A stretch of DNA of 64,000 nucleotides from Terriglobia bacterium. GTDB lineage: Bacteria > Acidobacteriota > Terriglobia > 20CM-2-55-15. Position numbers and translations under genes: made by a program. How positions within the stretch are numbered: position 1 is the stretch's first letter; each line of letters begins with the position of its first letter. The notes below the pieces were generated by a model. That model had not been told where the DNA came from, ran no database searches, and was given only the letters and a program-made list of their open reading frames with translations. The stretch covers positions 192,001 to 256,000 of the forward strand of contig CAXWPJ010000005.1 of the NCBI GenBank assembly GCA_963664115.2, read 5' to 3'. This document shows positions 14,590 through 21,104 of this stretch, one piece after another.

Positions 14590-16420
14590 TCCCTGAACAA
14601 GCGTGATTGACGAGGAAATGATAGTGCAATAAGAGCGGAAGTACCCGAAATGCCCCTCTCCGTGCGAAAAAAACCTTGGACAGATTCTTCGGAAAAGGAG
14701 GCATTTCAGATGAACGATTATACGCGCAAGAACATGAGGAACCGCAAGCGGCGAATCGAACGTCGGCTTGGGGACCGGCATTGGACGGATCAGGTAGAGC
14801 CGATGTTTTCGGCGAGCAACATTCAGTACGAGATGGGAGAGCGGACGCGGGGCACATCGGTTGGTGGTATCGGGACGATGCAACTGGTGGCGCGGCGGAC
14901 CGGGCTGATCGAAGCCATCGACAAGGGCGTGCATGTGTTGAAGCGGCACCTGCCGTATCACGAGTCGGATCACGTGCTGAACATCGCCTACAACGCCTTG
15001 AGCGGAGGAACGTGCCTGGAAGACATCGAACTGCGGCGCAACGATGCGGTGTATCTGGATGCGCTGGGAGCGCAACGGATTCCGGATCCGACGACGGCGG
15101 GAGACTTCTGCCGGAGATTCGAGGCCGACGACGTGGAGTGTCTGATGGAGGCAACCAATCAAGTCCGGCTCGGAGTCTGGCGACAGCAACCGGCGGCGTT
15201 TTTCGAAGAAGCGGTGTTGGACGCGGACGGGACACTGGCCGAAACCACGGGGGAATGCAAGCAAGGGATGGACGTGGCCTACGACGGGACGTGGGGATAT
15301 CACCCGCTGATGATCTCGCTGGCCAACACCGCCGAACCGCTGTATCTGGTCAATCGTAGCGGCAACCGGCCGTCGCATGAAGGAGCCGCGGTCCGGTTCG
15401 ACCAAGCCATCGCATTGTGCCGGCATGCGGGGTTTCGCCAGATCCTGCTGCGCGGGGACACGGACTTCAGCCAGACCCGGCATCTGGACGGATGGGACGA
15501 CCAGCAGGTGGGTTTCATATTCGGGATTGACGCGATGGCGAACCTGAAGGCCCGGGCCGATGAACTGGAGCCGCGCCAGTGGAAGCGCCTGGAACGGCCC
15601 GCGAAATACGACGTGGCGACCGAACCGCGCCAACGTCCCGACAACGTGAAGGAAGAGATCGTTCGGCAGCGCGGTTTCGACAATATCCGCTTGCAGGGTG
15701 AGGATGTGGCCGAGTTTCGGTATCGACCCGGAGCCTGCGATCGGGACTACCGTGTCGTCGTGGTGCGGAAGAATCTGTCGGTGGCCAAAGGAGAGCAGGT
15801 GTTGTTTGACGAATCCGGTACTTGGCTACATTACCAACCGTTCGGATCCGGCCGATCAGATTGTGATGCGTGCCAATCAACGGTGCAATCAGGAGAACTC
15901 ATTGAGCAGTTGAAGAACGGCGTTCAGGCGTTGCGGATGCCGGTCGGAGATCAGACCAGCAACTGGGCCTACATGGTGATCGCGTCACTGGCCTGGACAC
16001 TGAAAGCGTGGTTTGCATTGCTGCTTCCCGAAACCGGACGTTGGGGCCAAAAATATCAGGCTGAGAAGCAAACCGTGCTGCGCATGGAGTTCAAAACCTT
16101 CTTGAACGCTTTCATGCTTGTGCCGTGCCAACTCGTGCGCACCGGGCGGCGCATTCTGTTCCGGATCCTGGCCTGGAACCGGTGGTTGCCGGTCTTGTTC
16201 CGCGGGGTGGATGTGTTGCGTCGCCTCTGCGATGTTGACCCGATCATGACTTGAGCCCGGGCGATCGAGGTCCCGGTTTCTGTCAACCGTCCAACACCAG
16301 CGAGGCTGAACTGAAACAGATTCAACAGAAACTCGATACCTGGAACAGGCCATCCGGGAACGGGATTCTATGCCTCGAATTCTTCGGCGAACTGGGCCTC
16401 GGCGGACTGGTTATGCGCTT
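14590..16420 (+). mobile_element. IS1380-family copy 1, frameshifted and lacking the right end
   Basis: Near-identical to 16436-18284 but with several small indels and without the last ~9 bp. Confidence 0.9.
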
Positions 16421-16435
16421 GAGATGAGTAGCTAG

Positions 16436-18284
16436 TCCCTGAACAAGCGTGATTGACGAGGAAATGATAGTGCAATAAGAGCGGAAGTACCCGAAATGCC
16501 CCCTCTCCGTGCGAAAAAAACCTTGAACAGATTCTTCGGAAAAGGAGGCATTTCAGATGAACGATTATACGCGCAAGAACATGAGGAACCGCAAGCGGCG
16601 AATCGAACGTCGGCTTGGGGACCGGCATTGGACGGATCAGGTAGAGCCGATGTTTTCGGCGAGCAACATTCAGTACGAGATGGGAGAGCGGACGCGGGGC
16701 ACATCGGTTGGTGGTATCGGGACGATGCAACTGGTGGCGCGGCGGACCGGGCTGATCGAAGCCATCGACAAGGGCGTGCATGTGTTGAAGCGGCACCTGC
16801 CGTATCACGAGTCGGATCACGTGCTGAACATCGCCTACAACGCCTTGAGCGGAGGAACGTGCCTGGAAGACATCGAACTGCGGCGCAACGATGCGGTGTA
16901 TCTGGATGCGCTGGGAGCGCAACGGATTCCGGATCCGACGACGGCGGGAGACTTCTGCCGGAGATTCGAGGCCGACGACGTGGAGTGTCTGATGGAGGCA
17001 ACCAATCAAGTCCGGCTCGGAGTCTGGCGACAGCAACCGGCGGCGTTTTTCGAAGAAGCGGTGTTGGACGCGGACGGGACACTGGCCGAAACCACGGGGG
17101 AATGCAAGCAAGGGATGGACGTGGCCTACGACGGGACGTGGGGATATCACCCGCTGATGATCTCGCTGGCCAACACCGCCGAACCGCTGTATCTGGTCAA
17201 TCGTAGCGGCAACCGGCCGTCGCATGAAGGAGCCGCGGTCCGGTTCGACCAAGCCATCGCATTGTGCCGGCATGCGGGGTTTCGCCAGATCCTGCTGCGC
17301 GGGGACACGGACTTCAGCCAGACCCGGCATCTGGACGGATGGGACGACCAGCAGGTGGGTTTCATATTCGGGATTGACGCGATGGCGAACCTGAAGGCCC
17401 GGGCCGATGAACTGGAGCCGCGCCAGTGGAAGCGCCTGGAACGGCCCGCGAAATACGACGTGGCGACCGAACCGCGCCAACGTCCCGACAACGTGAAGGA
17501 AGAGATCGTTCGGCAGCGCGGTTTCGACAATATCCGCTTGCAGGGTGAGGATGTGGCCGAGTTTCGGTATCGACCCGGAGCCTGCGATCGGGACTACCGT
17601 GTCGTCGTGGTGCGGAAGAATCTGTCGGTGGCCAAAGGAGAGCAGGTGTTGTTTGACGACATCCGGTACTTCTTCTACATTACCAACCGTTCGGATCCGG
17701 CCGACCAGATTGTGATGCGTGCCAATCAACGGTGCAATCAGGAGAATCTCATTGAGCAGTTGAAGAACGGCGTTCAGGCGTTGCGGATGCCGGTCGGAGA
17801 TCAGACCAGCAACTGGGCCTACATGGTGATCGCGTCACTGGCCTGGACACTGAAAGCGTGGTTTGCATTGCTGCTTCCCGAAACCGGACGTTGGGGCCAA
17901 AAATATCAGGCTGAGAAGCAAACCGTGCTGCGCATGGAGTTCAAAACCTTCTTGAACGCTTTCATGCTTGTGCCGTGCCAACTCGTGCGCACCGGGCGGC
18001 GCATTCTGTTCCGGATCCTGGCCTGGAACCGGTGGTTGCCGGTCTTGTTCCGCGGGGTGGATGTGTTGCGTCAGCCTCTGCGATGTTGACCCGATCATGA
18101 CTCTGAGCCCGGGCGATCGAGGTCCCGGTTTCTGTCAACCGTCCAACACCAGCGAGGCTGAACTGAAACAGATTCAACAGAAACTCGATACCTGGAACAG
18201 GCCATCCGGGAACGGGATTCTATGCCTCGAATTCTATCGGCGCGAACTGGGCCTCGGCGGACTGGTTATGCGCTTGTTTTGGGA
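16436..18284 (+). mobile_element. IS1380-family element copy 2
   Basis: Ends CCCTGAACAAGCG and CGCTTGTTTTGGG, flanked by CTAG on both sides. Confidence 0.92.
16557..18089 (+). CDS. IS1380-family DDE transposase
   Basis: LDADGT, GYHPL, RSGN, LRGDTDF and R...EN.I..LK. Confidence 0.92.
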   Translation: MNDYTRKNMRNRKRRIERRLGDRHWTDQVEPMFSASNIQYEMGERTRGTSVGGIGTMQLVARRTGLIEAIDKGVHVLKRHLPYHESDHVLNIAYNALSGGTCLEDIELRRNDAVYLDALGAQRIPDPTTAGDFCRRFEADDVECLMEATNQVRLGVWRQQPAAFFEEAVLDADGTLAETTGECKQGMDVAYDGTWGYHPLMISLANTAEPLYLVNRSGNRPSHEGAAVRFDQAIALCRHAGFRQILLRGDTDFSQTRHLDGWDDQQVGFIFGIDAMANLKARADELEPRQWKRLERPAKYDVATEPRQRPDNVKEEIVRQRGFDNIRLQGEDVAEFRYRPGACDRDYRVVVVRKNLSVAKGEQVLFDDIRYFFYITNRSDPADQIVMRANQRCNQENLIEQLKNGVQALRMPVGDQTSNWAYMVIASLAWTLKAWFALLLPETGRWGQKYQAEKQTVLRMEFKTFLNAFMLVPCQLVRTGRRILFRILAWNRWLPVLFRGVDVLRQPLRC

Positions 18285-18591
18285 CTAGTATAGCTGTGCT
18301 TCAGGTCTCTCACAATTGGGCGCCAGACGAAAGAAGATCACGTCTGACCAATCAGTGACAGGGAGAAACGAGCTGTCCCAGCCGAACCGGTCGCGCCGGA
18401 AGGCGAAGGGAAGGGGATGCTAAACAATGCATTATCGGGTACGAAATGTCCTGCCGCAGTCCGGTTGGAGGCTAGTTTCCAGGTAAGGAACCGGGAAGCC
18501 GTCACGGACCGGCCTCAGGTCTCGGCAGATCCGGGTAAAAGCTATCGCGTGTAATCGAATGGTGAGCGATTCATTGCGATACGTGAAGAAC

Positions 18592-18705
18592 TAGCCGAGA
18601 CGCCGGAAGGCGGCATCGAACCGCCCAGTCGCGAGGCAATAACAAATGTAGCCGAGACGCCGGAAGGCGGCATCGAACCGCCCAGTCGCGAGGCAATAAC
18701 AAATG
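18592..18705. repeat. Perfect 57-bp tandem duplication
   Basis: TAGCCGAGACGCC...AATAACAAATG occurs at 18592 and 18649. Confidence 0.95.
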
Positions 18706-18817
18706 TCCCATATGGACCCCGGATAGTGAACGCATGACTTTTGCTTCAAACAGAGACGGGACGTGGGGTATTTATTGGCAACGCGCAGATGGAAGCGGTG
18801 TTGGCTAACTCCTTACG
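18692..18817 (+). pseudogene. PD40/TolB-repeat fragment of the kinase family
   Basis: GNNKCPIWTPDSERMTFASNRDGTWGIYWQRADGSGVG*LLT. Confidence 0.8.
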
Positions 18818-18935
18818 ATGCTGGACGAGATGAAAACACGACGATCTCCGGGCATGAGGCGCCGACTTCCGTCAGAAATTGTGACCCAATCAGGTTAAGT
18901 TGACCCTACCTTCCGGTAGTTCCGCGAGCAAGGAA

Positions 18936-19067
18936 TCAAGGCTTTGCGCAGCACACACATGTGCAGTGGCACCGGGATGGTTCGCCCTCACATGTGCAGG
19001 AACAACCTTCCGGTCCACAGTCGCAATTTTCGCAGCATTTGCATTGGCACTGATGTTCGGTGGGCAT
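18936..19067 (-). CDS. Metallothionein-like Cys-rich small protein (43 aa, 14 Cys)
   Basis: MPTEHQCQCKCCENCDCGPEGCSCTCEGEPSRCHCTCVCCAKP*; AAGGAGGT RBS; TATAAT at 19092-19097; downstream CTACC-GGAA-GGTAG hairpin. Confidence 0.8.
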   Translation of the reverse strand: MPTEHQCQCKCCENCDCGPEGCSCTCEGEPSRCHCTCVCCAKP

Positions 19068-19175
19068 GTCAAACCTCCTTCTTCACTCGCAATTATAGCC
19101 GACGGACTGTCCCTTTCGCAGGGAGGCGGGGCAGCGCCACGAACGACCGGCTGATGGTCGCAGACGTCGATGGCG

Positions 19176-19299
19176 CGGGTCCCGGTGCCCTGATTTGCGA
19201 TCTCAAGTCTTGAAAAATTCCCTTCTCGGACATTGAGAATCGGGCAAATTTCTGGGGATTTTCAACGTCATCAAGAAGGTCGTTTGCCAGGACCTGAGA
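19176..19299 (+). repeat. C-stub (RVPVP*) plus a complete ~99-bp imperfect palindrome at a unit junction
   Basis: TCTCAAGTCTTGAAAAA...CCTTCT..GACATTGAGAATC pairs with GATTTTCAACGTC..AGAAGG...TTTGCCAGGACCTGAGA (19201-19299). Confidence 0.85.
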
Positions 19300-19376
19300 A
19301 TTTGATAGCGCCTAAATTACTCCTCTAGTATCTTTTACCGAGAATTTAACTGTTCATTTAGCGACACACTTCGAAC

Positions 19377-19409
19377 ATGGAATCTGGCACCAAACTCGAC
19401 CATTACGAA
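19377..19409 (+). pseudogene. Short kinase N-terminal stub, in frame with the amidohydrolase
   Basis: MESGTKLDHYE after the conserved leader. Confidence 0.8.
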
Positions 19410-19439
19410 CAATCGCTCGATTTTTTAAGGAGAGGTACT

Positions 19440-21104
19440 GTGAAACATTTGAACTGGAAAACGACAGTGGCTCTTGTTCTGTTCGCAAGTTCCGTTGCTG
19501 CATCAATGGCTCATGCACAGGATCAGGCTCCGGATCTGGTTCTGTCCAACGGAAAGGTCGTTACTGTAGATGACCGCTTCACGATCGCAGAAGCGGTGGC
19601 TATCGGGGGCGAACGTATCGTGGGAGTCGGCACGAATCAGGAAGTCGCGCGACTGGCCGGGCCCAATACCCGAACGATCGATCTCGGAGGGCGTACCGTT
19701 ATTCCCGGCCTGATCGATAACCATGCTCACATCATGGAAGAAGGTCCGATCTGGCAGTTGGAACTGCGTCTGGATGGGGTGGAATCGCGGACCGAAGCGC
19801 TCGAGATGATACGCGGGCGGGCAATCGATCTGGGTCCGGGCGAATGGGTTTTCACACTGGGCGGTTGGGCGACGGATCAATTCACAGACGACGTGAGTCA
19901 TTTCACACGCGACGAGTTGGACCGGGTTGCTCCCGACAACCCGGTACTGTTGCAGTACACACGCTCCCACACTTATCTCAACAGCCGCGCTATAGAGGCC
20001 ATCGGGTTGAATGAGATGAACGCTCCATGGATCGTGCGCGATGATGGCGGAAGACCGACAGGCGTGATCGAAGCTGAGGGCATCAACCAAGTCGGACGAG
20101 CGCGTCCCGCGCCGCCAGAAGAATTGTTCGAATCCAGCAGCCTGGCAATGATCCGCGATATGAACCGAGCGGGTCTTACCACGGCCGGCGGTCCCTGCCC
20201 CGCGAACCTCATAGACAGGTTCCGGCAATTTGCAGATGAGGGTCGGCTCAATATGCGGTTCTTCTGTTTTCTGCCGACGGGAGCGTCCGGCACCCCAGCC
20301 CAGGTGGATCGCCTTCTGCCGCAGATCGCCGAGTTGAAACCGTTCCAGGGCGACAACTGGGTGGATCTGACCGCCTACGGAGAAAGCGTATACCGCCCGC
20401 TGCACGACAGCATGCTGGCACGCACAACCAATCCAACACCCGAGCAGCTTTTCCAGTGGCGACGCGTCGCGACTGAAGTTGCCCGTGCTGGATTACCGCT
20501 GCACGTACACGCCACGATCGAGAACACGATTACCGGATTTCTCGACCAGATCGAGCTGATTAACCAAGAGTACCCCATACGGAATCTGCGCTGGGCTTTG
20601 GCTCATGTTGACCAGGTGAACGCCTCACACATCGAGCGCATGAAGGATCTCGGGATGTACCTCGCGGTACATACGCGGCCGACCGTCATGGGCCAGATCT
20701 TCAACCGTGCGCATGGCGACCGTTCCTACGATATGCCGCCGCTGGCGCTCATCGAGAACAGCGGGATCGTGTGGGGCCTGGGAAGCGACACGTTCGAGGT
20801 GAATCAGTACCGGCCGTTCACGACCCTCTGGTGGGCTGTGACCGGGAAGATGGTAGGCGGCACCGAGGTCCTCAGGCAGACAATCGGCCGCGAAGAAGCC
20901 TTGATCGCCCACACGCGCGAAAATGCCTACCTGGTGTTTCAGGAAAACAATCTGGGTTCAATCCAACCCGGCAAGCTGGCGGATCTGCTAGTTCTGGACC
21001 GCGATTACCTGACGATTCCAGCCGACGAGATCAAGGACATCCAACCCCTGATGACGATTGTAGGAGGACGCATCGTCTACGACGCCGACGCTGATCAGGA
21101 CTGA
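19440..21104 (+). CDS. Exported amidohydrolase (Amidohydro_3/YtcJ-like)
   Basis: Own RBS and GTG start; signal peptide; IDLGGRTVIPGLIDNHAH; GSD; GSIQPGKLADL. Confidence 0.88.
   Translation: MKHLNWKTTVALVLFASSVAASMAHAQDQAPDLVLSNGKVVTVDDRFTIAEAVAIGGERIVGVGTNQEVARLAGPNTRTIDLGGRTVIPGLIDNHAHIMEEGPIWQLELRLDGVESRTEALEMIRGRAIDLGPGEWVFTLGGWATDQFTDDVSHFTRDELDRVAPDNPVLLQYTRSHTYLNSRAIEAIGLNEMNAPWIVRDDGGRPTGVIEAEGINQVGRARPAPPEELFESSSLAMIRDMNRAGLTTAGGPCPANLIDRFRQFADEGRLNMRFFCFLPTGASGTPAQVDRLLPQIAELKPFQGDNWVDLTAYGESVYRPLHDSMLARTTNPTPEQLFQWRRVATEVARAGLPLHVHATIENTITGFLDQIELINQEYPIRNLRWALAHVDQVNASHIERMKDLGMYLAVHTRPTVMGQIFNRAHGDRSYDMPPLALIENSGIVWGLGSDTFEVNQYRPFTTLWWAVTGKMVGGTEVLRQTIGREEALIAHTRENAYLVFQENNLGSIQPGKLADLLVLDRDYLTIPADEIKDIQPLMTIVGGRIVYDADADQD

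Follow-up and report, generated by a model that had tools for sequence, protein, structure and literature searches.

A conserved 43-residue, cysteine-dense peptide of Terriglobia, probably a metallothionein of a new family

The window, a 64,000-nucleotide stretch of the genome of a Terriglobia bacterium, carries on its minus strand a short gene (P0002) for a small Cys-rich peptide, set among the remains of kinase-PD40 genes. The features at the locus are as follows.

18936..19067, minus strand: P0002, coding sequence (by translation, TGA stop included) of a 43-residue, 14-Cys metallothionein-like peptide
19073..19080, minus strand: Shine-Dalgarno sequence AAGGAGGT, 5 nt before the ATG
19092..19097, minus strand: TATAAT, predicted sigma-70 type -10 box with a poor -35, about 24-30 nt before the ATG
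19105..19109, minus strand: short element C(A/T)GTC, separated by 7 nt from the -10 box downstream of it, present in the four closest copies
18906..18919, minus strand: weak hairpin with a 5-bp stem past the stop, lacking a U tract
18912..19111, minus strand: homologous cassette (promoter box, ribosome-binding site, coding sequence and some 25 nt past its 3' end); its 200 nt are 87% identical to locus L014
18689..18829, plus strand: fragment of PD40 (TolB-like) type left from a Ser/Thr kinase-PD40 gene (Pfam PF07676, E 3.4e-9)
19176..19256, plus strand: C-stub, end of a kinase-PD40 gene (last five codons, 19176-19193) with its 3' flank; 121 BLAST matches genome-wide
19377..19409, plus strand: N-stub, the first codons of a kinase gene, in frame with a downstream amidohydrolase-3 gene

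The Cys pattern of the peptide is CxCxCC-x2-CxC-x4-CxCxC-x6-CxCxCxCC. A sequence-only reading of this DNA had described a gene of 43 residues with 14 Cys, two His and no Phe, Trp or Tyr, preceded by a perfect ribosome-binding site and a TATAAT box and lying antisense between a PD40 fragment and a C-stub; translation of the frame and the features listed above agree with this description, the poor -35 notwithstanding. Within the genome, 22 of 142,616 candidate starts of short ORFs (25-90 aa) reach at least 20% Cys. The window ORF and a paralogue head the short ORFs genome-wide with 33% Cys each, the next following at 23%, and these two alone among the 22 have a Shine-Dalgarno match.

Codon-level comparison covered 12 intact copies and 40 codons, L035 being omitted for its one-residue shift. 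The window copy gave pN/pS values of 0.18-0.43 against the 11 others, and pN was below pS in 66 of 66 pairs of family copies, which are not independent of one another. Variable codon positions were mostly third positions (37, as compared with 22 first and 19 second), and both TGT and TGC were used in 12 of the 14 Cys columns. The other same-strand frames run into stops in several copies and codon-level selection acts on the P0002 frame only; overlapping frames of 60 and 84 aa were rejected as the real gene by the same comparison. The P0002 frame codes for a conserved protein that is under purifying selection and has a fixed Cys pattern.

TATAAT is retained in the four closest copies and in L035 (it lies upstream of L001, L014, L015 and L035). 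The arrangement TATAAT-N6-20-AAGGAG-N5-11-ATG occurs three times genome-wide, and C(A/T)GTC combined with the box at four sites, two of which are the two copies of the window gene. GGAG or GAGG lies within 20 nt of the start in all 13 intact copies of the family. A sigma-70 scan called no full promoter at the window gene because the -35 is poor, and a sigma-70 type promoter is predicted to drive the gene. Downstream, the 5-bp stem noted in the sequence-only reading does exist, but the terminator scan left the hairpin uncalled, the 63 nt after the coding sequence fold no better than shuffles (z -0.26, with 74 of 200 shuffles as good), and six aligned 3' flanks have a consensus of only four pairs. 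With its missing U tract, the hairpin was therefore rejected as a terminator. An Rfam scan of 17900-19600 gave no match.

Homologues were to be sought by tblastn, according to that same reading, and tblastn with genome searches yielded 13 intact copies on DNA. Eight of these, the paralogue in the window's own genome included, come from seven genomes of the class Terriglobia, and five from metagenome contigs. The peptide was run against 41 genomes, and an alignment against 401 genomes of the class and 14 of one family. Strong matches (E <1e-12) were obtained in eight genomes, the window's own among them; eight in 401 genomes of the class make the family patchy, and 400 further genomes from the phylum gave no match at E 0.001. 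The alignment search also found two entries in protein libraries; one of these carries the L034 peptide at its end. A word-seeded protein search with the single peptide gave no match, nor did plasmid and phage collections. Weak matches in G003, G010, G014, G019 and G026 (no full Cys pattern) and in G391 (no pattern match) were dropped as nonmembers, and G061 (E 0.005) was not counted. Insertion sequences split the copy in G002 (L027:7276-9734), which is surrounded by further transposases; read from the sequence, the insertion has an apparent duplicated 8-bp target and inverted ends. The family gene can thus be lost.

All 13 intact copies encode 41-43 aa with 14 Cys (33%), and 11 of them have identical spacing. 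The chains are rich in Lys, Gly, Thr, Glu and Gln, and Ile, Leu and Val together make up about 1%; each has zero to one aromatic residue, zero to two Ile/Leu/Val and zero to two His. One Tyr or Phe stands in 8 of 13 copies at the position of His5 of the window copy. The two His and the lack of aromatics, offered earlier as features of the gene, are therefore not family-wide, and His residues were rejected as conserved ligands. The paralogue on contig C9, found by tblastn of the window's own genome, is 86% identical and keeps all Cys. At L030, L032 and L033, a tRNA-Ala(GGC) gene stands tail to tail with the family gene, and an M50 peptidase gene is close by.

The history of the window copy differs from that of its paralogue. 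In the tree, the window copy groups with L014 and not with the paralogue (support 95/87, the bootstrap not being fully settled), and a recent duplication within the genome was rejected on this pairing. The 35 nt upstream of the window copy are likewise 94% identical to L014 as against 74% to the paralogue. The latter sits between a pair of NHL-repeat genes and TonB-dependent receptor/DUF5916 genes, a setting shared by L015 and, with remnants, by L014; it may mark the ancestral site. The window copy probably came as a cassette of about 200 nt from a relative, landing antisense in a decayed kinase-PD40 gene. The earlier suggestion of shell cargo with its own promoter thus suits the window copy, given the cassette with its -10 box and ribosome-binding site, but not the paralogue or the other copies. 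No C-stub was found within 30 kb of the paralogue or in the 13 other loci, and carriage in kinase shells was rejected as a family-wide trait.

The surroundings show further repeats. A kinase-PD40 gene end, a spacer of about 190 nt and the initial codons of the following kinase (19176-19409 in the window) recur together genome-wide. The kinase-start motif has 34 matches in the genome, only three of them followed by an open frame of about 880 aa; at two places, 19377 and G000:C2:764779-766512, an unrelated gene continues the kinase start in frame. The pattern resembles rows of decayed kinase shells in which cargo genes lodge. An exact tandem duplication of 57 nt (18592-18705) has its second copy ending inside the start of the PD40 fragment, and 14650-18289 holds two tandem IS1380-like transposase genes (PF13701), with an element end that is present near-identically many times genome-wide.

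In two genomes of one genus (L028 and L029), the family gene lies head to head with an ECF sigma factor whose linker holds a CxC and whose C-terminal domain is Cys-rich, the two traits that define CorE-like, metal-activated sigmas in the portion of PMC6851896 available to us. The tail spacing of these sigmas fits Cys 181/184/189/192/194 of CorE (available text of PMC3107203 and PMC4937300), a correspondence drawn by spacing and not by alignment. Mapped in the same way, they place Ala where CorE has Ala185, the copper-type residue; this position separates copper-sensing CorE from Cd/Zn-sensing CorE2 (PMC4937300, as far as available). Both loci also have TGTAAT-N17-CGTC in common, at 48-58 nt upstream of the small gene. 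The copies at L028 and L029 thus combine an adjacent sigma with a shared upstream motif, the two marks of a CorE-like (ECF238) regulon, and their transcription by the sigma is putative. Since the link is confined to L028 and L029 among the 13 copies, and these belong to a single genus, it amounts to about one independent event.

CorE-like sigmas were found in 26 of 301 genomes searched. The motif TGTAA-N17-19-CGTC, defined from L028 and L029, was tested on 26 other CorE-like loci (24 genomes) and occurred in 15 of them, against 0.054 expected per 3.5 kb in the window genome; the loci, being from related genomes, are not independent of one another. Eleven CorE-like loci are without the motif. 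A tighter motif, tuned after the first matches had been seen, occurred in 17 of 28 loci, as compared with a mean of 0.22 in 200 shuffles. At the 15 loci, the gene behind the motif encodes a CopA-like P1B ATPase in six cases (partial matches, cut by locus ends and below curated cut-offs), a peptide of 21-53 aa with 6-14 Cys in eight, and a 55-aa, 5-Cys peptide in one. Because the same motif precedes all of them, the family fills, in one genus, the slot of copper exporters and Cys-rich mini-genes. According to the available portion of the ECF reclassification supplement (PMC7826278), ECF238 has no conserved predicted promoter.

Beside CorE-like sigmas lie ten unrelated-looking Cys-rich mini-genes of about 21-53 aa (L044, L049, L051, L053, L055-L058, L060 and L063), eight of them directly behind TGTAA...CGTC. 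Their profile scores of at most 5.5 bits, against 48 for L035, set them outside the family, and none matched Pfam or NCBIfam (L057 lay outside the scan); they are candidates for further metallothioneins. The CopA-like ATPases behind the motif at L062, L067, L068 and L069 start with Met-Cys-Cys-Cys and have more Cys pairs before a YHS domain. Near another CorE-like sigma, L046:3231-3536 reads as a Cys-rich ORF resembling four-helix copper storage proteins.

The other 11 of 13 copies have neither the motif nor an adjoining sigma or transporter partner, and their neighbors are mixed, with no clear metal theme among the 80 flanking ORFs and six more that were scanned; the exceptions are a LarC nickel-insertion gene by L017 and, at L028, a non-P1B cation ATPase. 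The window genome holds no CorE-like sigma and the motif is absent upstream of both its copies, so the window copy has neither mark of the regulon. Its nearest relative of the CorE-like sigmas is a SigZ-type sigma by an ArsI/CadI gene on another contig. This sigma (L039, G000:C10:88014-91511) has a Cys pair near its C terminus and follows the ArsI/CadI-family gene; similar genes lie beside SigZ-type sigmas in three relatives (L040-L042). The window genome also has a copper ATPase, far from the window gene, and two MerR-family genes.

Scans of Pfam and NCBIfam with the peptide and 13 aligned members matched no family or precursor model, HMMER filters being liable to lose low-complexity Cys-rich matches. 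PDB sequences gave no significant match, the sole one being a disulfide-rich spider peptide (E 0.39). The predicted model, of low confidence (pLDDT 64), has a short two-strand hairpin, for which Foldseek and VIA-align found no fold match; this comparison is uninformative because such peptides fold around metal. Metallothioneins are described as chains of <100 aa with about 15-30% Cys or more in CxC and CC motifs (PMC7826182, portion available), and all 13 copies lie within these bounds of size and Cys content. A location inside the cell, as composition suggests, and the paucity of aromatic and aliphatic residues fit the description as well.

We consider it likely that the peptide is a cytoplasmic metallothionein of a new family, predicted to bind metal, as conservation, selection, composition and the metal-regulon context in two relatives suggest; the earlier designation as a metallothionein-like gene is thereby strengthened. 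The first Cys comes at residue 6-7, too early for a leader or signal peptide to precede it, and there is no signal peptide or hydrophobic stretch. The chain would stay in the cytoplasm, unstructured until metal binds; several soft metal ions, Cu(I) being the likeliest, would then be enclosed by its thiolates and so buffered or detoxified in Cys-thiolate clusters. The number of Cys predicts a load of about 4-5 Zn/Cd or 8-10 Cu(I) per chain. If the peptide is a metallothionein, a preference for copper is somewhat favored, with Zn/Cd or mixed binding retaining a substantial share of the probability. In one genus, the gene may be switched on by the neighboring copper-type CorE-like (ECF238) sigma, as the two relatives suggest; in the window genome, it would be read from the predicted sigma-70 type promoter, without a CorE-like sigma.

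Other roles for so many Cys have to be weighed against this reading. Instead of being a bulk sponge, a metal-binding peptide could buffer thiol redox state, chaperone metal, or act as a modulator that takes metal away from sensors such as the CorE-like sigma. The head-to-head placement with the sigma at L028 and L029 would suit a modulator, as would the many unrelated Cys-rich mini-genes in the same slot at CorE-like loci, and spacing kept in 11 of 13 copies suggests one defined fold. Nevertheless, 11 of 13 copies have no adjoining sigma or transporter partner, and 14 Cys in 43 residues exceed the need of a chaperone, CopZ-type proteins binding at one site (PMC7558416, in the part available). 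We regard such a different job as unlikely. A small structural zinc finger, zinc ribbon or Fe-S protein that adopts one fixed fold and works with a partner molecule would also account for the strong conservation of spacing and for the two-strand hairpin of the model. However, the chain has no hydrophobic core residues and one CxxC spacing only, and it matched nothing in Pfam, PDB sequences or, on the low-confidence model, known folds, which makes this explanation very improbable.

Cys-rich RiPP precursors exist, and the peptide might be one, its Cys being modified by an enzyme of the MNIO/DUF692 or radical SAM type encoded elsewhere. B12-type radical SAM genes do lie 0.9-1.9 kb away, in divergent orientation, at 2 of 13 loci (L030 and L032), but L033, which shares their tRNA-Ala/M50 side, has no radical SAM gene in 4.6 kb upstream. 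The 97%-complete window genome has no match to PF05114 (MNIO), and its only SPASM match is about 135 kb from the paralogue, beside a gene that reads as sugar-aminotransferase-like. With Cys from residue 6-7 there is no leader, and NCBIfam precursor models match 0 of 13 members. The sequence-only reading had named a RiPP precursor as an outcome that would overturn it; neither a leader nor a coencoded maturase was found, and we consider a RiPP quite unlikely. An exported disulfide-bonded peptide would agree with the even number of Cys and with the spider peptide as sole, nonsignificant PDB match, and is opposed by the want of any signal peptide or hydrophobic stretch. Both the RiPP and the disulfide readings are weak because there is no export signal, leader or conserved maturase neighbor. 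A chance open frame without product would agree with the fact that no transcript was seen, no RNA sequencing run being listed for the window; against it stand codon-level selection on this frame only and the stops in other same-strand frames of several copies. An exported peptide and a chance frame are, even taken together, the least credible of these alternatives. The reading as a cytoplasmic metallothionein thus remains the one we prefer.

To our knowledge, characterized types of bacterial metallothionein are few, namely SmtA/BmtA and MymT. Like SmtA/BmtA, the window family is small, Cys-rich, presumably cytosolic and easily missed by annotation, with predicted sequestration of metal in thiolate clusters (PMC3323870, portion available). 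It differs in having no PF02069 match (0 of 13) and no SmtB-type neighbor seen; PF02069 was also unmatched in the window genome and positive in a Synechococcus control. Its Cys content of 33% compares with about 16% for bacterial metallothioneins (PMC13578184 Table 1, as available), and the zinc-finger fold, conserved Tyr and His ligands described for BmtA in the accessible text of PMC3323870 have no counterpart, the fold being unmatched on a weak model and the conserved residues absent. The remark that the Cys pattern is unlike SmtA/BmtA is borne out by these differences. MymT of mycobacteria, as portrayed in the available part of a review (PMC7558416), is of similar size, was originally an unannotated ORF and shares the predicted Cu(I)-thiolate core. 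By library scans and description, the sole grounds of this comparison, no NCBIfam, Pfam or PDB match ties the family to it. MymT is controlled by a CsoR-family repressor, and this repressor type has no match in the window genome.

The sigma at L028 and L029 resembles CorE and CorE2 of Myxococcus xanthus (ECF44, now ECF238) in its CxC and Cys-rich tail, as far as the available text allows, and is of copper type at the specificity position. The known CorE/CorE2 regulons comprise a multicopper oxidase, ATPases and efflux genes, and the word metallothionein is absent from the portions of the CorE papers at hand. The literature covered, which largely left subscription papers aside, held no acidobacterial metallothionein and none under an ECF44/238 sigma. 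Prior descriptions of the family were likewise not found, the sequence sets of metagenomic metallothionein surveys (e.g., PMC11705764) lying outside the comparison. TGTAA...CGTC offers a candidate promoter on which acidobacterial CorE-like sigmas can be tested.

Animal metallothioneins resemble the family in composition, with a metazoan mean of 31.65% Cys (PMC11705764, portion available) and, in the accessible text of PMC7826182, CxC and CC motifs and a near absence of aliphatic and aromatic residues. The window family differs in placing 14 Cys in one 43-aa chain, and its spacing departs from each of the alpha, beta1, beta3 and gamma patterns given there. Pfam and PDB scans detected no homology to eukaryotic metallothionein families. 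The earlier view of the gene as closer to eukaryotic metallothioneins thus stands for composition and not for descent, and because no homology was detected we read the likeness as convergence, which appears more likely than transfer. Metallothioneins arise repeatedly, unannotated bacterial ones are to be expected, and the family is not categorically new as a kind. A bolder proposal, possible and on balance doubtful, would make it a third bacterial type: an independently evolved, animal-like, all-Cys Cu(I)-thionein, one of several unrelated thioneins of 21-53 residues that came repeatedly, in acidobacteria, to lie behind the promoter of the copper-sensing CorE-like sigma, carried between genomes in a self-contained 200-nt cassette. 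With 43 residues, 33% Cys and a spacing of its own, the family would give a major bacterial phylum a metallothionein type whose Cys density is like that of animals.
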